Position numbers and translations under genes: made by a program
Part shown: positions 44,088 to 57,361 of the stretch, piece by piece
Layout of the letters: the number at the start of each line of letters is the position of its first letter
Position numbering within the stretch: position 1 is the stretch's first letter
Assembly: GCA_964478725.1 (NCBI GenBank)
Contig: CAYZKS010000001.1
Location: 2,903-66,902 of the forward strand
DNA: 64,000 nt
Reading direction: 5' to 3'
DNA from: an uncultured Anaerolineales bacterium
GTDB taxonomy: Bacteria > Chloroflexota > Anaerolineae > UBA2200
The notes under the pieces: generated by a model
Database searches by the model: none
What the model was told of the DNA's origin: nothing
The model's input: the letters and a program-made list of their open reading frames with translations, nothing else

Positions 44088-45392
44088 CTAGGTTCCCAAC
44101 AGCTGTACGACTAGGGCCTTGTACTCATCATACGACATGGTTTGGTAGGGTGGCGTGCCCTGCCAGACGTACACGACTTCCATCTTCAAGCTGGGCTTGA
44201 GTTCCCACACAAAGGCCACGGGGTGCTTGGGCTCTCCGATGGCATCCCATGACAAGCCAGCCGGACTGATGATGCTGGGGACCTCGATCTCGTGCAGGGC
44301 CTTGCGGATGGCCTCCCTCTCAGCCTTCCCGGCATGCTTGATGGCAGCCGCGACCGCGTAGACGATATCATAGTACACAGGAGACCATTCCTCGGGCTCC
44401 TTGCCCCACCTGGCCATGAAATCGGCGGTGAACTTTCTGGTTTCCGGCCTAAAGTCAATCGGCGGAGCAGCGGTGGGGGCCAGCGTGCCGACGCCCTTCT
44501 CCTTCACGGCGTCGACGTATTCTGAACTGGTGGCTTCAGCCGCGATGTAGTGCTGCGTCATCCCCAGGTCCTTCATCTGGTTGCAGATCAGAGCGGCCTC
44601 AGAATAGCCGGCAAAGTACACCGCCTCGGGCTTCTCAGCGTTGACCTTGGTGAGCGTGGGGGTAAAGTCCACAGCGTTCTGGTCCACACCCTGGAAGCTG
44701 GTTGTCTTCACGCCCAGCTCCTCACACCTCTTCACGAACACCGTCGCCACGGCCTCGCCGAACATGGTCTTGTTGTGGATGACCGCCACGGACTTGATGC
44801 CCAGTTTCTCGACCGCATAGTCCGCACCGGCGTAGCCAGTGATCAGGTCGTTAGCGCAGGTGATGCGGAACACATGGTCGTAACCCTGGATGGTGATCCT
44901 GGGGTTGCTGCCAAGTTCGAGCTGAGGCATGCCAGCCTCTTTGTAGACAGGCATGGTGGGGATCGTGGTGCCGCTGAAGGTGTGACCAATCACGGCCACG
45001 ATCTCCGGGTCCTCGCACAGCTTGTGCGCCACGGCCACGGCCGTCGCCGCGTCCCCGGCGTCATCCATGACGACCAGTTCCAGCGGCCTGCCCAGAACGC
45101 CGCCCGCCGCGTTGATCTGTTCTACCGCCAGGATTGAGGCATCCCTCACCATCTCGCCGAACACATAGGTGTCTGCCCCGGTCAGAATCACCGGCAGGCC
45201 GATCTTGATGGACTTGGCCGCTGGCGGTGGCACGGCTGTGACTTCCTTTACTACTTCCTTCTCCACCTCCACGACCTTGGTCTCTACTTTGGTGATCACC
45301 TGTGGAACAGGTGTCGCAGCAGGAGCGCACGCGGAAACGAGTACGCTCAAAGCCAAGACCACCAACACGATTGTCTGAAGCTTCCTATGCAT
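44088..45392 (-). CDS. ABC transporter substrate-binding protein, Leu/Ile/Val-binding (LivJ/K) family, lipoprotein-type signal
   Basis: Signal peptide with a lipobox-like LVSAC, a Pro/Val/Glu-rich linker, then a type I periplasmic binding fold. Confidence 0.8.
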   Translation of the reverse strand: MHRKLQTIVLVVLALSVLVSACAPAATPVPQVITKVETKVVEVEKEVVKEVTAVPPPAAKSIKIGLPVILTGADTYVFGEMVRDASILAVEQINAAGGVLGRPLELVVMDDAGDAATAVAVAHKLCEDPEIVAVIGHTFSGTTIPTMPVYKEAGMPQLELGSNPRITIQGYDHVFRITCANDLITGYAGADYAVEKLGIKSVAVIHNKTMFGEAVATVFVKRCEELGVKTTSFQGVDQNAVDFTPTLTKVNAEKPEAVYFAGYSEAALICNQMKDLGMTQHYIAAEATSSEYVDAVKEKGVGTLAPTAAPPIDFRPETRKFTADFMARWGKEPEEWSPVYYDIVYAVAAAIKHAGKAEREAIRKALHEIEVPSIISPAGLSWDAIGEPKHPVAFVWELKPSLKMEVVYVWQGTPPYQTMSYDEYKALVVQLLGT

Positions 45393-45576
45393 TTGTATCC
45401 CTCCTCCTAGTTGTCTGGACTATCCACGGATACGCACCGGACTGGCTTCGTTCCACTTCTTGGCATCTGCGCCCAGATCACCTCCTTTCGTCGGCGGCCG
45501 CACTGCCTGTGCAATTGTGTGCAGCGACGATTCATCATAGTGCCAGGTCGGCGAGTGCTGCACTGTCCTGGGCCGA

Positions 45577-46485
45577 CTATTCGAGTTTGGCAAACTCTCT
45601 CAGGTATTTCTCCAGCACCTTGCGCGTCTTCGCGTCCAGTGGCTGATACGGCGACCTTGGTCGACCGGCCTTCTGCCCAGCAAGCTCGGCTGTGGCCTTG
45701 AGGAATGCAACTTCGTTATCCGACGTGATATAGCTGCAGAGCTGGGTGAACTTGCGATAGAGGGGGATAGCCTTGTCCAGATCTCGACGCATGCAGGCAT
45801 CGTAGAGTGCAAGCACGGCCTTGGGCACGGCAATGCCGAACAACGACACGATACCCTTCCCGCCCAATAGCACGTCGCTGAACAGCCAGCCTTCACCGCC
45901 GGAGAAGACGTTGACTCTGTCTGCTATCTTGGTGAGCACATTGGCACGGTGCCACACGTCGCCGTTCGACTCCTTGACTGCCTTGATGTGTTCGAGTTCA
46001 AGCAGCTTGTCCCAGAACACGGGAGTCATATTGAAGCCGCGAGGCAGTGGTGGGTAATTGTAACACATGATCTGGATTTCGTCCACCGCCGCGTTGATGG
46101 CTGCATAGTATTCCAACACGTCAGCGGCAGTGGGGGTAATGACGTACGGTGGCGCGATCATGACCCCATCCGCGCCAGCCTTTTCTGCGTATGCGGTGCG
46201 GCGGAGGCACTCCTTCAGGTTCTGGAACGTGGCGCCAAATACCACTGCCAGCCTGCCCGCCGCTGCCTGAACCGCCACGTCGACCACCTGGTTGAACTCC
46301 TGCTCACTGGGCGCATAGAACTCGCCCATGCATCCGAAGGCGATGAGGCCTGGCACTCCGGAGCGGGCCAGGAAATCCACATTGTGCGCCAGCCCATCCA
46401 GGTCGATTTCCTGGTTCTCCTTGATGGCAAATGGAACCAGGGGGAAGACACCCTGCAGCGGTTTTCTCGCTCGCGCTTTGACCAT
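45577..46485 (-). CDS. DapA/dihydrodipicolinate synthase-family lyase (candidate Pyr4H2C deaminase or KDG-type aldolase of hydroxyproline catabolism)
   Basis: DHDPS-family TIM barrel (GCMGEFYAPS; Schiff-base Lys region). ATG at 46485 with an AAGGAG RBS. Confidence 0.7.
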   Translation of the reverse strand: MVKARARKPLQGVFPLVPFAIKENQEIDLDGLAHNVDFLARSGVPGLIAFGCMGEFYAPSEQEFNQVVDVAVQAAAGRLAVVFGATFQNLKECLRRTAYAEKAGADGVMIAPPYVITPTAADVLEYYAAINAAVDEIQIMCYNYPPLPRGFNMTPVFWDKLLELEHIKAVKESNGDVWHRANVLTKIADRVNVFSGGEGWLFSDVLLGGKGIVSLFGIAVPKAVLALYDACMRRDLDKAIPLYRKFTQLCSYITSDNEVAFLKATAELAGQKAGRPRSPYQPLDAKTRKVLEKYLREFAKLE

Positions 46486-46556
46486 AAAACTCCTTTCAAC
46501 GACTGTCATGATGATGCACACCCCTCCCGGCTCCCAAGCTCAGAGAGGCGAATGCC

Positions 46557-47591
46557 CTAGAACTCTGTGCCCCACTTGCTGCGTGGGCCGAGGTAGAAGC
46601 CGCGCGGATAGGGGTCTCTCGGGTCGAGAACGAACTGCTGTATGCCGGTGATGTAGGCACTGCCACGGATCGTCGGGTAGATGGCTGGCAACTCACCCAC
46701 TTGAGTCTCTTCGACGGCCTTGCCTGTGAATCTGCTGCCAATGATGCTCTCGCTGACAAACTCCTGATTGAGCTTGAGCTCGCCTTTGGCATAACGCATG
46801 GCCACCTCAGCCGACGTTCCAGTACCACAGGGCGAGCGGTCAATGGCCTCAGCGCTGAAGAACACGGCGTTGCGCATGTGCACTCCCGGGCTCTGCGCCG
46901 GTGCGACAAAGCGTACGTGGGTACAACGATTGATCGCGGGGTTCAGTGGGTGCACTACCTCGACTTGTTCAAAAACAGCCTCGCGGATCTTGCTGCCAAT
47001 GGCTACGATGTCTGCGCTTCTCTGGGGGATCAGCTCCAGGCCAACGCTCTCGGCCGGCACAATGGCGTAGAAGTTGCCGCCCCAGGCAATGTCGAGGCGC
47101 AGCTTGCCGATGGTTGGTACATCCACGACGAGGTCACGCTTGTAAAGGAAGGCTGGCACGTTGCGGAACGTGACGCTCTTGGCGATGCCATCCTCTACCT
47201 CCACCTCCGCGGTCACCAGGCCCGCAGGCGTATCCAGCACGATCTTCGTGCTGGGCTCTTTGACCTGCACCATGCCTGTCTCGACCAGGACGGTGCTTGT
47301 GGCGATGGTCATATGGCCGCACATCGGTAGAAAGCCGCTGACCTCTATGAATAGCACGCCAATATCTGCTTGCGGTGATGCCGGAGCCGTGATGATGCTC
47401 CCCGACTGGAAACTGTTCCCGCGAGGTTCGAACATGAGCATGGTGCGCAGCTCATCCAGGTTCTTCTGGGCCCATAACCACTTCTCTGCCATGGTGTTGC
47501 CAGGAATCGCGGGTACTCCGCCGGTGACGACTCTGGCATACATGCCTTCCGTATGCGCATCCACCGCTGTCACTAGTCGTTTGAACCTCAT
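46557..47591 (-). CDS. Proline racemase family enzyme, second paralog, Cys/Cys type
   Basis: MCGHMTI and SPCGTGTSA motifs; clearly homologous to the 37797..38840 product along its full length. Confidence 0.85.
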   Translation of the reverse strand: MRFKRLVTAVDAHTEGMYARVVTGGVPAIPGNTMAEKWLWAQKNLDELRTMLMFEPRGNSFQSGSIITAPASPQADIGVLFIEVSGFLPMCGHMTIATSTVLVETGMVQVKEPSTKIVLDTPAGLVTAEVEVEDGIAKSVTFRNVPAFLYKRDLVVDVPTIGKLRLDIAWGGNFYAIVPAESVGLELIPQRSADIVAIGSKIREAVFEQVEVVHPLNPAINRCTHVRFVAPAQSPGVHMRNAVFFSAEAIDRSPCGTGTSAEVAMRYAKGELKLNQEFVSESIIGSRFTGKAVEETQVGELPAIYPTIRGSAYITGIQQFVLDPRDPYPRGFYLGPRSKWGTEF

Positions 47592-47664
47592 TGTTTCCTA
47601 TCCCCTTTCTCTTGATCGAGTTGCCGTTTATGGTCCAACGCCATGGCTTCCTTTCGTGCTGACG

Positions 47665-48828
47665 CTAGTTCTGCAGGAAACGCGCTGGCGAGAACCCCTC
47701 CATGGGCAGCTCAAGGCTCTGTCCTGTAATCATCTGCATGATGAGCTTGCCCGTGATGGGGCCCAAGGCGATACCCGTGCCCTCGTGGCCGGTGGCCACG
47801 TAGAAGCCCTTCACCCCGTCGGCCTCGCCGATGATCGGTATGTGGTCAGGTGGGAATGGGCGTAGGCCAGCGTACGTGCGAATGGCGTGAATGCCTTGCA
47901 GACACGGGAAGAAACGGATAGCGCGCGTGACGATCCTTTGTACGGCCGCCAGGTTCACTGAGCGATCGAACCCAACGAACTGCCGACTGCTACCGAGCAG
48001 AATGTTGCCGCTGGCCGTGTGTTCCACCACCGTGGCGATCTGGAGGCCGCGCTCGTCACTCTCCACGGTCTGTGTGTATGCCGCCTCCATCATCTTGCGA
48101 TGCACAACGTCCGCCACTGGCTCGGTGACCACGATTTGGCCTTGACGCGGCAGCACGGGCACATTCACTCCAGCCATCTCGCCGATCTGCTTGCTCCAGG
48201 CCCCCGCCGCGTTCACAACCGCAGAAGTGTGGATGCGGCCAGCGCTCGTCTCCACGGCCTCGACATGGCCATCAGAGATGGTGATGCTTTTGACCTCTGT
48301 ATAAGGCTGGATCATGGCTCCGTTGTCTGCGGCTGCCTGTCCGAGGGCCAGCACAGCCAGCATGGGCTGTACCTGAGCGTCCTCCGGGAAAACGGCACCC
48401 CCGCCCAGGTCTTCGGCCAGGTTCGGCTCCAACTGGCGCAACGCTTGCAAGCTCAAGAGTTGGCAGGGCACTCCTGCCTCTTGCATAGACCGGACGAATG
48501 CTTCGGCTGCAGCCATGTCCTCCGGCTGCTCGACTACCAGAATGCTGCCTTTTTCCTGGTACTCTATGCTGAACGGCAGACGTGGCACAACCTCACGGTA
48601 GAGTCCAGCCCCGATCTTGGAGAGTTCAAGCAGAATCCCGGGTGGCTTGTCCCACAGCAGGATGTTGCCCTCACAGGCTCCCGAAGCGCCACTGGCGAGC
48701 GACCCGCTGTCCAACAGGTGAACCTTGACGCCGGCTTGCGCCAGGTAGTAGGCGCAAGAGACACCGACGATGCCGCCCCCGATGACCACGACGTCGGGTG
48801 ACACTCTAAGCCTCACCCATGGACGCAA
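47665..48828 (-). CDS. FAD-dependent oxidoreductase, DAO family (candidate D-hydroxyproline/D-proline dehydrogenase)
   Basis: N-terminal dinucleotide-binding motif VVVIGGGIVG. DAO-family length and a C-terminal GHEGTG region. Confidence 0.8.
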   Translation of the reverse strand: MRPWVRLRVSPDVVVIGGGIVGVSCAYYLAQAGVKVHLLDSGSLASGASGACEGNILLWDKPPGILLELSKIGAGLYREVVPRLPFSIEYQEKGSILVVEQPEDMAAAEAFVRSMQEAGVPCQLLSLQALRQLEPNLAEDLGGGAVFPEDAQVQPMLAVLALGQAAADNGAMIQPYTEVKSITISDGHVEAVETSAGRIHTSAVVNAAGAWSKQIGEMAGVNVPVLPRQGQIVVTEPVADVVHRKMMEAAYTQTVESDERGLQIATVVEHTASGNILLGSSRQFVGFDRSVNLAAVQRIVTRAIRFFPCLQGIHAIRTYAGLRPFPPDHIPIIGEADGVKGFYVATGHEGTGIALGPITGKLIMQMITGQSLELPMEGFSPARFLQN

Positions 48829-48865
48829 TTGCGCTCGTGCGCGGATTCACGTTCTTCGCCAGGCT

Positions 48866-49675
48866 TCATGGGCCCTTTTGTAAGGCATTGGCCTTGCCAG
48901 CACCGGGCAGTGTGAGCCCTGCAGGATTGAGATTGGATGGATTGACCACGCTGGAAGCGGGAATCAATTCGACTTCGATCATGAACCTCTCGACGCTCTC
49001 GAGGTGTCTCCTCATACGGGTCGCTGCTGCGTCTGCGTCTTGCCTCTCAATGGCTTCACAGATCTCGCGGTGCATTACCCCGTACTGTCGTAGCCGGTCC
49101 GGTGCGGAGGCCGTCGCGTCCCTCAACAACAGCCACAGTCTCTGCCCCATCAATTCGTACACGGTGGACATCATGCTTACCAGCACCGGGTTCTCGGTGG
49201 CCTCCGCCACCGCCAAATGGAAGCGGCGATCCCCCTCGCTCGACAGATATGTGCCGTCTGGATCGCCGTCGGCCAGCCCCTGGATCTCGGACAGGCGCCG
49301 CAAGGATTCCTCGGATCTCTGTGTGGCAGCGAGGGCGGCGATGCCGGGTTCCACTGCCAGACGGGCTTGGAGGATGGCAAAGGGGCTTTCCAGGTCGCGG
49401 TAGAGCAGGGAGGCATCTAGTCGCAGGATCTTGGAGGGAGCATCGGCGCAGACAAACGTACCTTGTCCGGATCTGGTTTCCACCAGACCCAGCAACTGCA
49501 GAGCGCTGAGCGCCTCTCGCAGGGACGCACGACTGATTCGCAATTGCTCCGCAAGATCGCGCTCAGAGGGCAACTGGGACTCTGCGGCGAACTCGCCCTT
49601 TCTCACCAAATCGATGATCTGGTCCACGACATACATGTAGACCCTTTTGGTCCGCACCGGGGCGAAACTCGTCAT
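48866..49675 (-). CDS. GntR family transcriptional regulator, FadR subfamily (FCD ligand-binding domain)
   Basis: N-terminal winged HTH (LPSERDLAEQLRISRASLREAL), C-terminal all-helical FCD domain. ATG at 49675; the ORF-table start at 49762 is an extension. Confidence 0.85.
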   Translation of the reverse strand: MTSFAPVRTKRVYMYVVDQIIDLVRKGEFAAESQLPSERDLAEQLRISRASLREALSALQLLGLVETRSGQGTFVCADAPSKILRLDASLLYRDLESPFAILQARLAVEPGIAALAATQRSEESLRRLSEIQGLADGDPDGTYLSSEGDRRFHLAVAEATENPVLVSMMSTVYELMGQRLWLLLRDATASAPDRLRQYGVMHREICEAIERQDADAAATRMRRHLESVERFMIEVELIPASSVVNPSNLNPAGLTLPGAGKANALQKGP

Positions 49676-49918
49676 GTGCGCATTCCTTGCGAATTCTCGC
49701 CTTCGTGGATCGCTGCCGTGAGAGACGTGGACTGAGCGCATACGGAGCTTGGCGCATTGCACTTGCTCGCTGCGATGCTCCGGTTCAATGGCCTGCTGGT
49801 CAGTCCACGCACAGTATACCCCAATAGGCCGGGAATGTCAACCATCAGGTACTGCAAAAGCGAGTGAACCAGAATCAATGCGGGAACGTAAGCTAGTATG
49901 ATGCCATGGGATGCTCCA

Positions 49919-49935: not shown

Positions 49936-50000
49936 CAGAGCTCTGACTGGTAAGCGCGAAGCGCATGGCGCCAACGGGCCGGGTCTCGGATGCACGATGG

Positions 50001-50029
50001 CCATGCGCGCTTGGTTTCCGAGATTGGGT
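50001..50029 (+). promoter_or_regulatory. Sigma-70 promoter (TTGGTT-17-TATAAT) for the lipoprotein gene
   Basis: Consensus -10 with 17-nt spacing, about 35 nt upstream of the ATG at 50064. AAAGGAAGGGA RBS. Confidence 0.45.
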
Positions 50030-50063
50030 GTACTATAATGCGGGCGCAAAGGAAGGGAGCAGA

Positions 50064-51812
50064 ATGTCCAGAACCAAAGTCACGCTTGGCGTTCTTTGTC
50101 TGGCATTGTTGCTTGCTGGCTGTCAAGCTGCCACACCGAAGACTCGAAAAGTGCTATCAGAATGGAGCCGCGGCCAACAGCTGGGCATCAGCGGAATCAA
50201 CCAAAGCGTGGAGATGCTGTCAACCCAGGACGCACTGCATCTCGTTTGGGTGGCTGCCGAGGGCAGGACTCTGCATTACACGCGCCTTGACCGGGCAGGC
50301 CAAGTTCAAGTCAGCACGGATTTGGTGCTAGGTAGCGCGCATCCTACTTCACCAAACCTGTCGATGAGCACAGACGGTGTGCTGCGCCTCCTGTGGACTG
50401 ACAACCCACGCATTCCTCGTGGGTTGTTCTTTGCCAGACTCACCCCCGAAGGTCAACTACTGGGTGAGCCTCAACTCGTGAGCGAAGATGAGGTGAGGGT
50501 TTCAGAGTACGATGTGGCCTGCAACTCAGACGGCACCCTCGACATTTTCTGGGCGACGGAGGTTCCTAGCGAGGGTGGCATCTACCATCTGCGCATCCTG
50601 GCAGATGATCAGGTTGGCGAGGCCAACCGTCTATTGGTGGGCGGTGCAGGCAAGCCCAGCTTGCAGGTCGACCGCAACGGCACAATCCACCTGGTTTGGG
50701 TGGAGGGTGCGACCCCCCAGGAGAACACAATCTACTATGCGAGGTATGATCCATCGACGGGACAGCTCGAAGACAAGACGCGCGTGGGCTTCTACCGTTC
50801 GGGAACCGGAATGGTTGCCCATCCACCCGTTCTGGGATTAGACAGAGCAACAGCCTACGTATTCTGGTCTTCAGAAGGACGTGGAGGAGCCCAGGCAGGC
50901 GAAGCACAGACCTTCATGACCTCCTTCCCTCCTGGAAGGCCCGCGTTGAACGAGGCAGAACCCGTGGAGATCCCGGCCACGGTCAAGCCAGAATATGAGA
51001 GGGTGACTGGAAACTTGCCTTACCAGCAACTTGCCTCCGTGGCGACGGGATGGCCGACGGGCTACCTGTACGCGCCAGCCGTTCTTGAGGGCCAGAATGA
51101 CGAACTGGGCCTTTTCCTGGTGGGCCAATTCTCTTCGCGTAACCGGACCACTACCGAGGTAGCCTGGGCGATCCTGACCGATGGTGCGGTGAAGGGCTAT
51201 CAACTGCCAACAAGCTTGGACGGCAGTGCGCGTCCCATGGGAGTGCTGGATGGGGGTGGCGATGCGCACCTTGTCTGGTTGAGCGCGGCTGGATTCGGTC
51301 GCTACGATGTCTACTATGCCAGCACATCTGAGTCGGTCAGGGCGAACCTGGATCGGGTCACCGTACAAGATGTAGCTTCGGACGTTCTGGGGACGTTGTG
51401 GAACCTGGCACCTGCGCTTGGGTTCTTCCCACCTGTGTTCCTGCTATGGACCATACTCTCTTTCATCTGGGTGGTTGGCTTCTACATCGTCAAGGTCGAG
51501 GGTGATTTGGAGCGACGGGCGTCCCAGGTTGCGCTGGTGATTGCTGTCCTGCTCTACCTGGGATCCAAGCTGTTTCTGATGCCCCCGAGCATGCTGTTGT
51601 ACGCTCCCTTTGTGGATCGTTTCCCTGGAAGTCTACAGTTCATACCGGTAGTTGGCACCCTGCTGTTCACGACACTGATTGCTCTGGGAGCGGTAGCGGT
51701 ATACTTTAGGAAGAGGCAGTACAGATCCCTGTTGGCAGTATACCTGATTTTCGTGGTCACAGATGCCCTGATCGCCTTGATTCTCTACATCCCAGGCGTC
51801 ATTGGGCCATAG
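50064..51812 (+). CDS. Lipoprotein with repeated beta-propeller/BNR-like blades and a C-terminal polytopic membrane domain; function unknown
   Basis: Signal peptide plus lipobox (LLLAGC). Six or more repeats of a hydrophobic-W motif (LHLVWVAAEG, LRLLWTDN, LDIFWATE, IHLVWVEG, AYVFWSSEG, AHLVWLSA). About 4 TM helices at the C-terminus. Confidence 0.5.
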   Translation: MSRTKVTLGVLCLALLLAGCQAATPKTRKVLSEWSRGQQLGISGINQSVEMLSTQDALHLVWVAAEGRTLHYTRLDRAGQVQVSTDLVLGSAHPTSPNLSMSTDGVLRLLWTDNPRIPRGLFFARLTPEGQLLGEPQLVSEDEVRVSEYDVACNSDGTLDIFWATEVPSEGGIYHLRILADDQVGEANRLLVGGAGKPSLQVDRNGTIHLVWVEGATPQENTIYYARYDPSTGQLEDKTRVGFYRSGTGMVAHPPVLGLDRATAYVFWSSEGRGGAQAGEAQTFMTSFPPGRPALNEAEPVEIPATVKPEYERVTGNLPYQQLASVATGWPTGYLYAPAVLEGQNDELGLFLVGQFSSRNRTTTEVAWAILTDGAVKGYQLPTSLDGSARPMGVLDGGGDAHLVWLSAAGFGRYDVYYASTSESVRANLDRVTVQDVASDVLGTLWNLAPALGFFPPVFLLWTILSFIWVVGFYIVKVEGDLERRASQVALVIAVLLYLGSKLFLMPPSMLLYAPFVDRFPGSLQFIPVVGTLLFTTLIALGAVAVYFRKRQYRSLLAVYLIFVVTDALIALILYIPGVIGP

Positions 51813-51835: not shown

Positions 51836-52801
51836 ATGACCAGAACCGGACGCAATGACCTCTGCCCCTGTGGGAGCGGCAAGAAATACAAGAACTGCTG
51901 TTTGAACAAGGACCGCATTGCGCACCTGCGGGATACCTCCTGGATACGGGACGAACAGGCCACCGTACAGAAGCTGCTTGCATTTGCGCAGCGGCCAGCC
52001 TTTCACTCGCAGATGGTGGTGGCCTCCAATTTGTTCTGGAACGGCAACTATGGCGCTGCAGGCCTTGAAGCCATTGAGCGGGATGAAGCCCTACGCTTTG
52101 CGGATTGGTACGTGTTTGACTATCGGATGGAAGGGCTGGGCAAGCGTGCTGTTGATTTGTTTGCTGAAGAGATGGGGCCAACGCTCCTGCCGGAGGAAAG
52201 GGAGCGGGTGCGTATCTGGCAGGACTCGTACTTGAGCCTGTACATGATCGCTGGTTCCTCCGATTCAGGTCTCTTGCCGGTGCTTGATCTCCTGCAGGAA
52301 CGTGGGAGTTCCGTCTCTGGTGGCGAGCTGGGGCGGCTGGGGCTGCGTGGGGATGTGGTGTTGGGCCGCATTCTGCGTTCGCCCAACCCGGAGCATTTCT
52401 CGTGGGGCGCGGTCTTGCTGCCCGGCACGCTCAAAGCAGGGCTGATGGACGTGGCCAGGCGGGCTTTCACGGAGTATGGACAGACCCATGCTGAGGGGCA
52501 GTGGGCGAAGTTTCTTTCTGCTTATGGCTATATCTTCAATCACGCTCTGCTAAAGATGGCCACAGAGGCAGGTGGACCGCGCCGCGCCTCGCCGGCCTAC
52601 TATGACGGCTTCCGCACCATGGAAAGGCTCAGGGAAGTGGAAAGGCGCCTGCGTGAGCAGGCTGCCAAGGAATGGCAGAAACAACGCCTGGCACAGGAGA
52701 GACAGACAGAAAAGCAGGAAGAGCCAGTGCACCAAACGCGAGGGGGAATCCTACTACCGAAACATGTGCAGTACAGAGGCAGCCGCAAGGTCAAAGCATA
52801 G
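51836..52801 (+). CDS. SEC-C motif domain protein
   Basis: N-terminal RNDLCPCGSGKKYKNCC, the canonical SEC-C zinc-binding motif; the remainder is unannotated. Confidence 0.65.
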   Translation: MTRTGRNDLCPCGSGKKYKNCCLNKDRIAHLRDTSWIRDEQATVQKLLAFAQRPAFHSQMVVASNLFWNGNYGAAGLEAIERDEALRFADWYVFDYRMEGLGKRAVDLFAEEMGPTLLPEERERVRIWQDSYLSLYMIAGSSDSGLLPVLDLLQERGSSVSGGELGRLGLRGDVVLGRILRSPNPEHFSWGAVLLPGTLKAGLMDVARRAFTEYGQTHAEGQWAKFLSAYGYIFNHALLKMATEAGGPRRASPAYYDGFRTMERLREVERRLREQAAKEWQKQRLAQERQTEKQEEPVHQTRGGILLPKHVQYRGSRKVKA

Positions 52802-52818
52802 GACGCAATCACAAGGAG

Positions 52819-53271
52819 TTATAGAACCTCGCTGGCGGGTTGCTCTCCCTCTCCACAATAGGGGCAGATGTCCCAGTTCAGACTTAGCACACGGCCACAG
52901 GAAGGGCACTTTTTGCGTAGTTCTCTGTGACAGTGTGGGCATAGCATAAAGTCGCCTTCCACCTTGCGTTTGCAGCCAGGGCAGATGTAACGCTCCTCGA
53001 TGTCCTGTAAAAGTGCCTCTTGGCTCAATGCGTGTTCGTATGCATCGGCCAATGTCTCGCGCGGGCGCAAGACAAAGTACAGTATCAGCCCGGGAACATT
53101 GAACACGAGCACCAACAAGATAGCCAGTATCTGTACAAACACGTCTCGCGTGCGCGAGCGGATGTCTCGGAAAGTCCAGATCGTGATGGCGACGAGAAAG
53201 AGAACGGCATAGGCTCCCAGCAGGGCTAGGATGAACCCAACGATTGCCGTGATGTTGGTCGGCAGCTGCAT
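52819..53271 (-). CDS. Membrane-anchored double zinc-ribbon protein
   Basis: Two TM helices followed by CPGC...CPHC...CPSC...CPYC (four CxxC pairs). ATG at 53271 with a GGAGGA RBS. Confidence 0.5.
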   Translation of the reverse strand: MQLPTNITAIVGFILALLGAYAVLFLVAITIWTFRDIRSRTRDVFVQILAILLVLVFNVPGLILYFVLRPRETLADAYEHALSQEALLQDIEERYICPGCKRKVEGDFMLCPHCHRELRKKCPSCGRVLSLNWDICPYCGEGEQPASEVL

Positions 53272-53321
53272 TTGCTCTGCTCCTCCGCACGATGTCAGGT
53301 AAGTATAGCGCAACTCGCCGT

Positions 53322-53351
53322 TTTACACAATCGGGCACCCCCATGTATAAT
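53322..53351 (+). promoter_or_regulatory. Sigma-70 promoter (TTTACA-18-TATAAT) for the nuclease-dnaB-dnaD-dnaI operon
   Basis: Hexamers seen in the sequence about 80 nt upstream of the ATG at 53432. Confidence 0.4.
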
Positions 53352-53932: not shown

Positions 53933-55291
53933 ATGAGCCTGGAAAGACTGCCGCCGCAAAACGTCGAAGCCGAGCAATCGGTTCTGGGGAGTCTGCTGAT
54001 TGACCGTGACGCTATTGTCCGCATCGCGCCCTTTTTGAAAGCCGAGGATTTCTATCGCGAAGCGCACGGTCAGATCTATGCTGCCGTCCTGAATCTGCAC
54101 GAGCGGCGCGAGCCGGCGGATTTCGTCACGCTCAGCGATGAGCTGGAACGGCAGGGCATCTTGGAGTCTATCGGCGGAGCCGCGTACCTGACCTCGCTGA
54201 TCAATACTGTGCCCACCTCTATCCACGTTGAGCACTATGCGCACATCGTGGAACGCACGGCTACTCTCCGCCGCCTGATTGAGGCCGCTGGCAAGATTGC
54301 CGGTCTGGCCTACGAGGAGGCAGAAGATGTAGATGTCGTCGTGGATCGGGCTGAACAGATCCTGTTCGAGGTCTCGCAGCGCCGTGCTACCCGCGGCCTG
54401 ACTCCGATACGGCGCCTTCTGACCGAATACTACGATCGCATCGAATACCTTCACCAGCATCAAGGGGAGATGGTGGGCCTGCCCACGGGGTTTGTGGACC
54501 TGGATAGACTGCTGGGAGGTTTGCAGCGCTCCGATCTCATCATTGTGGCTGGACGGCCCGGGATGGGCAAGAGTAGCCTGGGCATGACCATGGCCCACAA
54601 AGCCGCACTCAAACACCAGGCAGTGGTAGCCTTTTTCAGCCTTGAGATGTCCGCCGAGCAGGTCGTGCAGCGCTTGATCGCTGGTGAGACAGGCATCAGT
54701 TCGCAGCGCCTGCGCGTTGGCGATATCCGTGACATCGAATGGGACAAATTCGCCAAGGCCAGTGGTGCTTTGGCGGAGACTGAGATCTTTATTGACGATA
54801 CGCCCTCGGCCTCGCCCATGGAAATCCGCACCAAGTGCCGCCGTCTGGCCGCCGAGTGCGGCCTGAATCTGGTCATCGTCGATTACTTGCAGCTTATGCA
54901 GGGCGGGACGCGCTCCGAAAACCGTGTGCAAGAAATCTCGTACATTTCACGCGCACTGAAAGGCCTCGCGCGCGAGTTGAACGTCCCGGTGGTGGCCATG
55001 TCGCAACTCTCTCGGGCGGTCGAGTCACGGCAAGACAAGCGTCCCATCTTGTCCGATCTGCGCGAATCCGGCAGTATTGAGCAGGACGCGGATGTGGTCA
55101 TGTTCATCTATCGCGACGATATGTACAATGAGAGTAGCGACCGCAAGAACGTCGCAGACATCATCGTTGCCAAACACCGCAATGGGCCCACTGGCCAGGT
55201 GATGCTGCGTTTCGTGGCCGAAGAGACCAAGTTCGTTGATCTCGACACGTACCACGAAGACATCGGCTTTGCCGAGTCGGAGGCAAGGTGA
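53933..55291 (+). CDS. dnaB: Replicative DNA helicase DnaB
   Basis: N-terminal primase-interaction domain ([12 protein letters not shown]). RecA-like C-terminal domain with Walker [10 protein letters not shown], Walker B IVDYLQLM, and arginine finger; 452 aa. Confidence 0.95.
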
Positions 55292-55986
55292 GCAAGTTTG
55301 CCGGGTTTCCAGGGGGCCAACTCAAGTACACGCCACTCCCGGACCTGTTCTTCAGCGAGCTACTGCCGCAGATAGACAGCCTGGCCGAATTGAAGGTTAC
55401 GCTGCACGTGTTGTGGCTGCTCTACCGCAAGCAGGGCACCCCGCGTTATGTGACGTTTGCCGAACTGCAGCGAGACAGCACGCTGTTGCGCGGCTTGGCG
55501 GGTCTTTCAGAATCGCCCGTGCAGGCCCTCAGAGAAGGCCTGCAGCAAGCCGTCGTGCGTGGCACGTTGTTGCGCCTGGCCAGCTCCGGTGCGGACGGTG
55601 AGCAGTTCTACTTTGCGAATAGCGCCCAGGGCCGGAAGGGCGTTGAGAAGGTGCGATCGGGCGAGTTGCAGTTGACACCATCTGCTGCATTGGATGAAGC
55701 CACGGGAGTGAAGGAGCCTCCCAATATCTTTGTTCTGTACGAGCAGAACATTGGTTTGCTGCAGCCTTTGATTGCAGATGAGCTGAAAGAGGCAGAGGCA
55801 GAGTTCCCCGCGGAATGGATTGAGGATGCTTTTCGCATTGCCGTGGAACAGAACGTGCGCAACTGGAAGTATATTCGACGCATCCTGGAGCGATGGCGAA
55901 CAGAAGGCAAGGGCAATGGCAAAGGCGAAACGCGCGACAGAACCTGGTACACAGACGAAGAGTCCCGCAGATTTATCCGACGCTAG
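55288..55986 (+). CDS. DnaD-domain protein (DnaD/DnaB_2-type replication initiation/helicase-loading factor)
   Basis: C-terminal DnaD-like domain ([15 protein letters not shown]...[29 protein letters not shown]). GTG or ATG start overlaps the dnaB stop (4-nt overlap). Confidence 0.6.
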
Positions 55987-57361
55987 GCTGAGTCCTGTAG
56001 AGCCGTGCCAAATCTGCCACGGCGCGGGCTACCTGCGACGCGACGTGCCGCCAGGCCATCCAGATTTTGGCCGTCCCGTGCCGTGTCAGTGCAAGCTGCT
56101 GGAGCGTCAACTGCGACGTCAGCAGGACCTGCGCCAAACCAGCAACTTGGGACAGCTTGAGCGCATGACGTTCGATACCTTCTTGGCCGCCGGACATGGT
56201 TTGAATCCCGAGTTGCAGGCCAACCTGAAAAAGGCCTTTGACAAAGCGCGAGAGTATGCGCAACAGCCAAGTGGCTGGCTGGTGCTAAAAGGCGGATATG
56301 GCTGCGGCAAGACTCACCTGGCAGCTGCCATCGCCAACCATCAGGTGGAGCGGAGCAAGCCGGTGCTTTTTGTGGTGGTGCCGGACCTGTTAGACTACCT
56401 GCGCACCACCTATGCCCCCAACAGTCCAGTCAGCTTTGATCAACGCTTCGACGCGGTGCGCACCGCCCCTTTGCTGATCCTGGATGATCTGGGTTCACAG
56501 AGCAGCACTCCTTGGGCCCAGGAGAAGCTGTATCAGATCTTGAATTACCGCTACAATGCACAGTTGCCAACGGTGATCACCACCAATTCCGAAATCGAGG
56601 ACCTGGACCCCAGAATTCACTCCCGCATGGTCGAGCTGGACTGGTCCGCGATGGTGCACATCCTGGCCCCCGACTATCGCGAGGGCGCCGATGCAAGGCA
56701 ATCAGAGCTGAGCAGTCTGGGCTTGCACTCTGATCAGACGTTTGAGAGCTTTGATCTGCGCGACGATGAAACCGACCTCGCGCCACCCCAGCGGGCGAAC
56801 CTCAGGCGCTCACTCAACATGGCCAAGGCATTTGCTGAAGATCCTCAAGGCTGGCTGGTGATCACTGGCGACTATGGATGCGGAAAGACCCACCTGGCAG
56901 CGGCCATTGCCAACTGCCGCTTCTACCAGAACTACCCTGTGCTGTTTGTGGTCGTCCCCGACTTACTGGACCACCTGCGGGCAACCTTCAGCCCGCAGAG
57001 CACAGTTGGCTTTGATCGCCGTTTTGAAGAGATCCGCAACAGCCCGCTGCTGGTTCTGGATGATCTGGGGACACACAGCGCAACGCCTTGGGCCCAAGAG
57101 AAGCTGTTCCAGATCTTTGACCATCGCTACAACGCGCGCCTGCCCACCGTCATTACCATGACGCGAGATGTCGAAATCGACCCGCGATTGAAGACGCGCA
57201 TTCTGGATACCCGTTTGTGCCAGGTCTGGGAGATCACGGCGCCAAGCTATCGAGGTCGGTTGGACGTCCGTGAGTCAGGGCGGACACAAAGAGGCCATGG
57301 CTCGCGTCCCTTGGCGTCGGGCTCAGAGCCACGTAGAAGGGGCATAGGTGCCCCTGGTTGA
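55916..57361 (+). CDS. DnaC/DnaI-like helicase loader (IstB-type AAA+) with an internally duplicated AAA+ module and an N-terminal Cys-rich region
   Basis: Two complete copies of Walker A (GGYGCGKTHLAAAIAN / GDYGCGKTHLAAAIAN), Walker B (LLILDDLG / LLVLDDLG), sensor-1 (TVITTN / TVITMT) and the box (WAQEKLYQILNYRYNAQLP / WAQEKLFQIFDHRYNARLP). N-terminal CQICHGAGY...CQC. ATG at 55916 with a GAAGG RBS; overlaps the DnaD-like gene by 71 nt. Confidence 0.7.
   Translation: MAKAKRATEPGTQTKSPADLSDARLSPVEPCQICHGAGYLRRDVPPGHPDFGRPVPCQCKLLERQLRRQQDLRQTSNLGQLERMTFDTFLAAGHGLNPELQANLKKAFDKAREYAQQPSGWLVLKGGYGCGKTHLAAAIANHQVERSKPVLFVVVPDLLDYLRTTYAPNSPVSFDQRFDAVRTAPLLILDDLGSQSSTPWAQEKLYQILNYRYNAQLPTVITTNSEIEDLDPRIHSRMVELDWSAMVHILAPDYREGADARQSELSSLGLHSDQTFESFDLRDDETDLAPPQRANLRRSLNMAKAFAEDPQGWLVITGDYGCGKTHLAAAIANCRFYQNYPVLFVVVPDLLDHLRATFSPQSTVGFDRRFEEIRNSPLLVLDDLGTHSATPWAQEKLFQIFDHRYNARLPTVITMTRDVEIDPRLKTRILDTRLCQVWEITAPSYRGRLDVRESGRTQRGHGSRPLASGSEPRRRGIGAPG
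56225..57260 (+). repeat. Intragenic tandem duplication (two copies of about 0.5 kb, roughly 75% nucleotide identity) encoding the duplicated AAA+ module of the DnaI-like protein
   Basis: Copy 1 is about 56225..56700, copy 2 about 56815..57260; long collinear runs of identical codons are seen by eye (e.g. GGCTGCGGCAAGACTCACCTGGCAGC vs GGATGCGGAAAGACCCACCTGGCAGC). Confidence 0.7.

Follow-up and report, generated by a model that had tools for sequence, protein, structure and literature searches.

In this study, we will focus on a 64,000-nucleotide (nt) stretch of DNA from an uncultured Anaerolineales bacterium (Chloroflexota), which we call the window, and particularly on one of its genes, which follows dnaB and a DnaD-domain gene and encodes an ATPase of 481 amino acids (aa) with two AAA+ modules in tandem. 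All coordinates are positions in this window, on the + strand unless stated. We propose that this protein is the resident loader of the replicative helicase and that it works as a covalent pair of neighbouring subunits, the second module of which would bind ATP and donate an arginine finger, but would hydrolyse poorly; we give this reading a probability of about 0.7. An earlier note on this DNA supposed that such a double-AAA+ loader was undescribed, and in the searchable full-text literature we likewise found no published account of tandem AAA+ modules in a helicase loader. Public sequences are labelled just 'ATP-binding protein' or 'DnaC', and the tandem loader is apparently an unreported architecture, on the scale of a phylum.

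The two modules correspond to two consecutive units of 192 aa, followed by a disordered tail. When the units are aligned globally over 189 codons, they are 52% identical in aa and 60% in nt, and their third codon positions are just 42% identical. The core (aa 118-231) is closer, with 65.5% aa identity to its module 2 counterpart. A direct-repeat search recovers the best-conserved 300 nt as two copies that are 72% identical, with an offset of 576 nt, that is to say exactly 192 codons. Both the Pfam family IstB_IS21 and the NCBIfam family PRK08116 match the protein in two stretches. The earlier note was therefore right in describing two collinear AAA+ modules, and its figure of about 65% aa identity between the copies is that of the core; its figure of about 75% nt identity is approached by the best 300 nt, but not by the full units.

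Such a chain would have been produced by an ancient internal duplication of the 192-aa unit. In the closer Anaerolineae set, the cross-species identity is 0.67 between first modules and 0.645 between second modules, while it is 0.54 between a first and a second module. As identity at the same position exceeds that between positions, the duplication predates the radiation of these Anaerolineae, with both modules similarly constrained, and at the level of sequence these values show a near-equal purifying conservation of the two. The low third-position identity, this positional orthology across species and the recurrence of the two-module form among related proteins, Dehalococcoidia included (counts below), together argue for an old and selected duplication, as the earlier note had it, and not for an assembly artefact.

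The protein matches Pfam PF01695 with 109.9 bits for a cutoff of 24.1, and the PRK08116 subfamily with 230.3 bits, summed over its two stretches, for a cutoff of 189; the best PRK08116 stretch places aa 64-261 on profile positions 61-258 of 269. It falls below the cutoffs of the more specific equivalogs, namely the E. coli-type DnaC (PRK07952, 123.6 bits vs 357), the Bacillus-type DnaI (PRK08939, 136.6 bits vs 228) and the IS21 IstB helper (NF038214, 137.3 bits vs 200), and the DnaI_N domain was not found in it by a Pfam scan. Orthology of the loader to DnaI or DnaC is ruled out by these cutoffs and by its N-terminal domain. Among the sequences of the PDB, it matches best those of DnaC (6QEL), DnaI (2W58 and 4M4W) and the Aquifex DnaC (3ECC).

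The identity of the two genes upstream is equally relevant. The DnaB protein scores 582.6 bits on TIGR00665 (cutoff 385) and matches both PF00772 and PF03796, and it does not pass the model for phage DnaB exceptions (432.6 bits vs 498.65). The following gene product belongs to the DnaD family (TIGR01446, 45.7 bits vs 24.95; PF07261, 34.4 bits vs 22), and its PHROG label is 'DnaD-like helicase loader'. The expected job of the tandem protein is that of DnaC and DnaI, because it is encoded beside the helicase and a DnaD-type co-loader. In the Chloroflexi rows retrieved from the survey of Brezellec et al. 2016 (PMC5109545), which include Anaerolinea thermophila and Dehalococcoides, genomes carry exactly one resident dna[CI] and no dciA, with the exception of Herpetosiphon, which carries three dna[CI]; a tandem architecture is not mentioned by these authors. 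Judging from the coupling of the gene to dnaB and dnaD, from its conservation in hundreds of Chloroflexota species and from these survey rows (PMC5109545), the protein is very probably a replicative helicase loader.

Among 5.8 billion proteins searched, relatives were found in at least 120 clusters, with 56-81% identity, mostly 390-490 aa long and covering 80-100% of the query, and the named proteins among them belong to Chloroflexota/Anaerolineae. In a scan of one genome per GTDB species, at least 575 loci were found to encode a relative of the loader. The best 80 of them, on which the synteny counts are based, all match across both modules. They span the Anaerolineales, Ardenticatenales, Caldilineae, Promineifilaceae and Thermoflexia, and they include a chromosome-level record, a polished contig of 10.4 Mb and a scaffold of 5.2 Mb. 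Among the loci with enough upstream sequence, a DnaD-domain gene lies directly 5' of the loader in 75 out of 75, and dnaB lies 5' in 65 out of 66. The complete order, starting with a bifunctional-nuclease-domain (BFN) gene and running BFN-dnaB-dnaD-loader, is found in 62 of the 80. The gathering of the helicase and its loader components in one operon had been called atypical; this is true with respect to Bacillus, but across the Chloroflexota it is the conserved state. The nuclease-fold (BFN) protein is conserved in this helicase-loading operon, and in Dehalococcoidia and in the single-module lineages its gene is replaced 5' of dnaB by rplI, which encodes ribosomal protein L9.

The number of modules is variable. 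A hidden Markov model (HMM) of the unit, applied to 363 related proteins, counted two full units in 301 of them, one in 56 (many of which are fragments), three in 1 and four in 1. A second search, seeded with an apparently single-module protein, led to 119 Dehalococcoidia proteins, all of which are two-module; the order rplI-dnaB-dnaD-loader was seen there on one 228-kb contig. More divergent two-module proteins (33-42% identity) are found in SAR202 and in other Dehalococcoidia. The two-module form is thus widespread, and the orthologues are not universally single-domain, which was the point to check for the earlier claim. Genuine single-module orthologues do exist, with the same zinc motif and the same position after dnaB and dnaD, on a 70-kb contig, on a 1.29-Mb contig and in a Chloroflexota metagenome-assembled genome. 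At the other extreme, a protein with four modules (P0004) is encoded directly after an intein-bearing dnaB and a dnaD on a 64-kb contig, and its modules are 38-65% identical to one another. A three-module protein (P0134), in which two modules are 84% identical, comes from a single 5.7-kb contig and is not relied on. The locus therefore occurs with one, two or four modules, most often with two in Anaerolineae and Dehalococcoidia.

In a neighbour-joining tree of 234 modules, the module 2 sequences fall in two large groups and not in one, and the module 2 of Dehalococcoidia is about equally close to modules 1 and 2 of Anaerolineae. One duplication shared by the two classes and several ancient ones are both compatible with this tree. 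Some isolated variants were also observed. Two proteins of 593-644 aa (P0250 and P0281) carry low-complexity N-terminal extensions of about 370-420 aa before the zinc motif, as measured on these two. Another one (P0225, 278 aa, on a 2.8-kb contig) has a zinc domain of the Dehalococcoidia type joined directly to a unit of the module 2 type with Cys at sensor I, as if the two repeats had been brought together by a deletion or by a collapse during assembly.

We then come to the catalytic motifs, for which the modules were aligned to the unit HMM together with segments of E. coli DnaC, A. aeolicus DnaC and DnaI taken from PDB alignments. Module 1 carries the complete AAA+ catalytic set, with Walker A K132, Walker B D190/D191, sensor I N224, box VII R233/R237 and sensor II R255, among which K132, D190/D191, N224, R237 and R255 are conserved at no less than 87-100%. 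Module 2 has all of it (Walker A K324, Walker B D382/D383, box VII R424/R428, sensor II R446) but sensor I, where T416 stands in place of Asn. The earlier note had called both modules complete, and this is correct for module 1 and for the Walker motifs and arginine finger of module 2, but not for the sensor I of the latter; likewise, the motif strings it quoted are present in both modules, except that its 'sensor' reads TTN in module 1 and TMT in module 2.

This difference extends to the whole family. In 213 Anaerolineae proteins, module 1 has sensor I Asn, the box VII finger Arg and the sensor II Arg in 100% of cases, while module 2 has Ala (40%), Thr (26%) or Ser (10%) at sensor I, the finger Arg in 100% and the sensor II Arg in 89%. 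In the 119 Dehalococcoidia proteins, module 1 has Asp at sensor I (97%), His at the finger position (82%) and no sensor II Arg, and module 2 has Cys at sensor I (97%) with the finger Arg and the sensor II Arg in 100%. In both sets and both modules, the Walker A Lys and the Walker B Asp-Asp are conserved at 99-100%. Modules 1-3 of the four-module protein have the canonical Asn, finger Arg and sensor II Arg, and its module 4 has Thr, Arg and Gln at these positions. Over 295 tandem proteins, just 7% have Asn at the sensor I of module 2 and 33-40% have Ala, and the canonical Asn is found in 26 of 28 single-module relatives. What these alignments have in common is that the last module has lost the sensor I Asn of its ATP site, but never its arginine finger.

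The assignment of this finger deserves a comment. HMMER placed the conserved arginine of the 'SR' motif on R216 of E. coli DnaC and not on R220, which we take to be the residue named arginine finger in that protein. The R-x3-R spacing is common to box VII of DnaA and to DnaC. Based on this spacing and on the profile alignment with the 'LASRL' motif of the Aquifex DnaC, R237 and R428 are likely the arginine fingers. As for DNA binding, the counterparts of the single-stranded DNA (ssDNA) contacts K143, F146, S177 and Y179 of DnaC are R/F(Y)/T/W and are conserved in both modules. A PDLLDxLR helix, which aligns with K143/F146 of DnaC, is invariant in both.

A structural model of the loader was built with AlphaFold2 (AF2) from 85 homologues. 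It has a mean predicted local distance difference test (pLDDT) score of 84 and two well-formed alpha/beta AAA+ modules, with a linker of lower confidence (aa 251-267) and disordered termini (pLDDT below 50 for 453-481). When it is compared to the PDB with Foldseek, the low root-mean-square deviation (rmsd) matches are to single modules and include DnaC 6QEM_G (template modelling score, TMt, 0.68; rmsd 2.8 Å), DnaI 2W58 (TMt 0.70; rmsd 3.4 Å), the Aquifex DnaC 3ECC (TMt 0.73) and also IstB. Sequential matches over two modules are to p97, NVL and NSF, at a high rmsd of 12-18 Å. As modelled, the fold agrees with that of the solved loaders down to the helical insert of the initiator-specific motif (ISM). 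The model thus suggests modules of the initiator clade, with DnaC, DnaI and IstB as best low-rmsd matches, and not a type II tandem AAA+ protein such as p97, NSF or ClpB.

The Cys-rich N-terminus that had been pointed out is indeed present and conserved in the homologues. It contains a C31-x2-C34...C57-x-C59 motif, in which C57 is invariant and C31, C34 and C59 are each conserved in at least 90% of the 85 homologues. AF2 predicts a beta-hairpin there (39-41 / 54-56, pLDDT 86-89). A comparison of the N-terminal 92 aa to PDB sequences gave no significant match. From its sequence, the motif is presumed to be a zinc ribbon and the helicase-interaction domain.

How could such a protein work? The subunits of AAA+ spirals complete the ATP sites of their neighbours with their arginine fingers. 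In the tandem loader, the site of each module would be completed in cis by the finger of the next module, so that the finger of module 2 would serve the catalytic site of module 1. The last site would have no partner in cis, and would have been relaxed for hydrolysis while ATP would still be bound. In clamp loaders and ORC-Cdc6, an end subunit binds nucleotide or donates a finger without hydrolysis. By analogy with these terminal subunits, the module 2 site could be a slow or non-hydrolysing 'glue' or 'cap'. The chains would then assemble head-to-tail on DnaB through this ATP-bound and slowly hydrolysing interface, which is suggested by the fact that Anaerolineae keep the finger of module 1 and the Walker A/B of module 2. 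Three chains per DnaB hexamer would provide six modules, but just three helicase-binding N-domains. In a broader version, which we only put forward tentatively and see as a possibility rather than an expectation, the Chloroflexota loaders would form a class in which AAA+ modules are polymerised within the chain (1, 2 or 4), the last one being a non-hydrolysing cap that donates its finger, and the whole making a short pre-assembled open spiral on DnaB, in place of six subunits recruited independently; with two modules per chain, a hexamer would take three chains and three N-domains.

Several points weigh against this proposal. It is built on sequence, context and predicted structure. Module 2 of the window protein may still be active, as Thr or Ser at sensor I supports hydrolysis in some AAA+ proteins. 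The arginine finger of module 1 is kept in all of the Anaerolineae, which a purely intramolecular model with one site does not predict. As the same dnaB-dnaD operon is also served by orthologues with one or with four modules, the system does not require a strict '3 x 2 = 6' arrangement. The AF2 model has a predicted template modelling score (pTM) of just 0.58, and the way in which it orients the two modules to each other is thus of low confidence. Finally, the evidence is confined to the window, and the source genome may encode another loader or DciA elsewhere.

The strongest competitor, though a doubtful one in our opinion, also accepts a loader but assumes six chains per DnaB hexamer and thus twelve AAA+ modules, either in two tiers or with one module per chain free for regulation, and such a free module could contact DnaD, DnaA or primase. 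The solved loader-helicase complexes (6QEL/6QEM, 4M4W) are 6:6, with one N-domain per helicase subunit, and this speaks for six chains. The single-module orthologues, which have the same zinc domain, presumably bind 6:6 as well, and the four-module variant does not divide into six. The sequential alignment of the whole model to the two-tier p97 and NVL goes in the same direction, despite its high rmsd. However, the ISM of the initiator clade goes with open spirals and not with stacked closed rings, and its conservation in both modules favours the former. The ssDNA-contact residues that both modules conserve also suggest one common DNA path.

Still less probable is a decayed duplication, in which module 2 would be a dead pseudo-ATPase scaffold and the protein an ordinary loader with one site. 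The loss of the sensor I Asn in module 2 is what one would expect from such a decay, but the rest of the module has been kept: the Walker A Lys at 100%, the Walker B Asp-Asp and the box VII Arg at 99-100%, the sensor II Arg at 80-89% and the ISM/ssDNA-contact R/F/T/W residues at 85-100%. The conservation of module 2 between species is also close to that of module 1. This pattern of retained motifs is the reason why we favour nucleotide binding and finger donation over a dead domain.

It is quite improbable that the protein is not the primary loader but a regulator akin to DnaA or Hda, or a replication-restart factor, sharing the AAA+ fold. DnaA and Hda models do match it, weakly and below threshold, but the matches to DnaC, DnaI and IstB are far stronger than those to DnaA, and the domain IV of DnaA is absent. 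Moreover, all lineages examined show translational coupling of the gene to dnaB-dnaD, and the Chloroflexi genomes in the retrieved survey rows have no other dna[CI] or dciA candidate (PMC5109545).

A mobile module, either a DnaB/DnaD/DnaC cassette of a prophage or the helper of an IS21-type element, is hardly credible. The protein does match PHROGs and Pfam models of DnaC-like phage loaders and of IstB, and a phage origin has been proposed for the DnaC/DnaI family (PMC5109545). Nevertheless, no transposase, integrase or phage structural gene lies near the locus, and in particular no IstA transposase stands beside the loader, whose neighbours are dnaB, dnaD and a glycosyl-hydrolase-like gene; the genes flanking the cluster are housekeeping or metabolic. 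The protein is below the cutoff of the IS21 helper equivalog, DnaB passes the chromosomal equivalog and not the phage exception model, and the synteny is conserved in two classes, next to rplI in Dehalococcoidia. By tblastn, the loader was also compared with collections of phage (50,697 records) and plasmid (72,556 records) sequences; among the 320 phage and 376 plasmid records that matched, none covered 80% or more of the query, and all matches were to a single module. The presence of phage genes nearby had been named as a point to check, and the answer is that none flanks the locus and that no tandem copy is found in these phage and plasmid records. A prophage or insertion-sequence module is ruled out by the context, the thresholds and these searches.

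Lastly, an expansion of a single-module gene by repeat mis-assembly deserves next to no credit and is ruled out: the window probably comes from a metagenome-assembled contig and P0225 suggests that repeat-related mis-assembly or deletion occurs in the family, but the copies differ at 40% of their nucleotides and 58% of their third positions, which assemblers would not confuse, the identical protein is recorded in several independent sources, and hundreds of independent assemblies, among them the 10.4-Mb contig, the 5.2-Mb scaffold and the chromosome-level record, have the two-module form as well.

The organisation of the locus itself is consistent with a single transcription unit (coordinates in Table 1). 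Only 3 nt separate the stop of the BFN gene from dnaB, the DnaD-domain gene starts with a GTG and overlaps the dnaB stop by 4 nt, and the loader gene overlaps the DnaD-domain gene by 71 nt. No convincing terminator was found inside the BFN-dnaB-dnaD-loader cluster. Co-transcription of the loader with dnaB and the DnaD-type gene is the best explanation. The reading frame of the loader is open from a TTG at 55820, but the ATG at 55916 is the likely start, because after this TTG it is the sole canonical start to precede the Cys motif, and no other ATG, GTG or TTG was found between it and the codon of the first conserved Cys. In the public record, the identical protein (P0001) has just 427 aa, as its gene model begins at residue 55 and thereby drops C31 and C34; this start is probably mis-called.

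Table 1. Features of the helicase-loading locus, its neighbours and related loci (window positions, unless a locus number precedes them)
Feature	Position	Strand	Remarks
Promoter-like site TTTACA-18-TATAAT	53322..53351	+	11/12 consensus matches, consensus match only; about 80 nt 5' of the first gene of the cluster
BFN gene, 165 aa	53432..53929	+	First gene of the cluster; Pfam BFN_dom (PF02577), 142 bits
dnaB, replicative DNA helicase, 452 aa	53933..55291	+	TIGR00665; Pfam DnaB, DnaB_C
DnaD-domain protein, 232 aa	55288..55986	+	DnaD/DnaB_2 (DDBH2) domain, aa 149-207
Tandem-AAA+ helicase loader (very probable), 481 aa	55916..57361	+	Zinc motif (presumed), module 1, module 2, disordered Arg/Gly-rich tail
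N-terminal 4-Cys motif	56006..56092	+	Conserved cysteines
AAA+ unit 1, aa 70-261	56123..56698	+	Fully canonical motifs
Best-conserved nt repeat, copy 1	56273..56572	+	Direct-repeat search
AAA+ unit 2, aa 262-453	56699..57274	+	Canonical except sensor I
Best-conserved nt repeat, copy 2	56849..57148	+	See text for identity and offset
C-terminal Arg/Gly-rich tail, aa 454-481	57275..57358	+	No consensus in homologues; predicted disordered
GH5/cellulase-like open reading frame (ORF), 563 aa	57348-59039	+	14-nt overlap with the loader stop if GTG 57348 is used
Small membrane protein	52819-53313	-	C-terminal double zinc ribbon; just 5' of the promoter-like site
321-aa protein	51836-52801	+	N-terminal SEC-C zinc motif, sole recognisable feature
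615-aa ORF	49965-51812	+	Hydrophobic C-terminal region; no Pfam/PHROG match
Five-gene catabolic-like cluster	44088-49762	-	See text
Single-module orthologues, dnaB-dnaD context	L087 5001-6194; L088 5001-5822; L086 1153-1983		
P0004, 827 aa, four AAA+ modules	L081 6001-8484		Zinc motif, three canonical modules, degenerate terminal module
P0225, 278 aa	L084 120-956		
Interrupted dnaB	L081 3433-5259; L087 1672-4302		

Around the cluster, other features were observed in the window. The gene that follows the loader encodes a protein resembling the cellulases of glycoside hydrolase family 5 (GH5). Its homologues align only from residue 17-51 on, so that its real start is probably further 3', and it is also found after the loader in the closest relatives (L001-L005). 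The 321-aa protein comes after the 615-aa ORF. Further upstream, the five-gene cluster resembles a hydroxyproline or amino-acid catabolic operon, with a periplasmic binding protein, a DHDPS-family enzyme, a proline-racemase-family enzyme, a FAD-dependent (DAO) oxidoreductase and a GntR/FCD regulator. As for dnaB, it is intein-free in the window. Inteins are common in the dnaB of the Anaerolineae lineage: the DnaB region exceeds 1.9 kb in 17 of the 80 loci, and matches to Pfam Intein_splicing/LAGLIDADG were obtained in two. The interrupted genes are found in L009, L012, L015, L021, L025, L030, L035, L045, L050, L053, L057, L064, L070 and others, as well as in the two loci of Table 1.

DnaC and DnaI act as ATP-dependent spirals, in which six identical subunits make the roles of the individual ATP sites hard to separate. 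The tandem family offers a natural tethered dimer, or a tetramer in one lineage, with diverged sites, and thus a handle on the division of labour between ATP sites. It also shows what evolution keeps, namely ATP binding and the arginine finger everywhere, and sensor I in the non-terminal modules only. Several questions become accessible: how many hydrolysing sites are needed, whether one helicase-binding domain can do for two ATPase modules, and whether hexameric spirals are obligatory. If a loader with polymerised modules is confirmed, it would depart from the E. coli and Bacillus paradigms both in the stoichiometry of loading and in how many of its sites hydrolyse ATP. The family spans a large and environmentally abundant phylum (Anaerolineae, Dehalococcoidia, SAR202), in which replication initiation is not known to have been studied experimentally.

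It is instructive to compare the tandem loader to known systems. The type II AAA+ proteins (p97/Cdc48, NSF, ClpB) also have two modules per polypeptide, of which often one is catalytic and the other mainly nucleotide-binding or structural. They differ in belonging to the classical/HCLR clade and in forming closed and stacked hexameric rings that thread protein substrates; given the rmsd of 12-18 Å on superposition, the order of the domains is common, but their arrangement is not. With clamp loaders and ORC-Cdc6, it is by analogy the logic that would be alike, that of an open spiral with a non-hydrolysing end subunit. These are, however, hetero-oligomers of separate chains that act on other cargo, and their sequence kinship to the loader is just the AAA+ fold.

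IstB of IS21 is a member of the Pfam family of the loader and resembles it in fold (8Q3W, 5BQ5). In these structures, IstB assembles from dimers, so that a paired unit is not new to this clade, except that the pairing is non-covalent in IstB and covalent in the window loader. In contrast to IstB, the window gene is chromosomal and syntenic with dnaB.

DnaC (from E. coli and Aquifex) and the Bacillus DnaI share with each module, as modelled, the same AAA+ fold (rmsd 2.8-4.4 Å to 6QEM_G, 2W58 and 3ECC) and the same layout of Walker A/B, sensor I, box VII Arg and sensor II. They have one AAA+ module per chain, whereas the window loader has two, with one N-terminal domain for both. This 4-Cys domain has no detectable sequence similarity to the N-domain of DnaI or to the N-terminal hairpin of DnaC, and module 2, unlike DnaC and DnaI, lacks the sensor I Asn. 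The 'DnaC-like' proteins of the PRK08116 type have a zinc motif and one AAA+ module, and they include the single-module Chloroflexota orthologues (P0245, P0252, P0264). They have in common with the window loader the CxxCxGxG...CxC motif, the TFxxF linker and the position after dnaB and dnaD. Their AAA+ unit is about 50-55% identical to module 1 and all-canonical, and to this single module the window loader adds a second one, with a degenerate sensor I.

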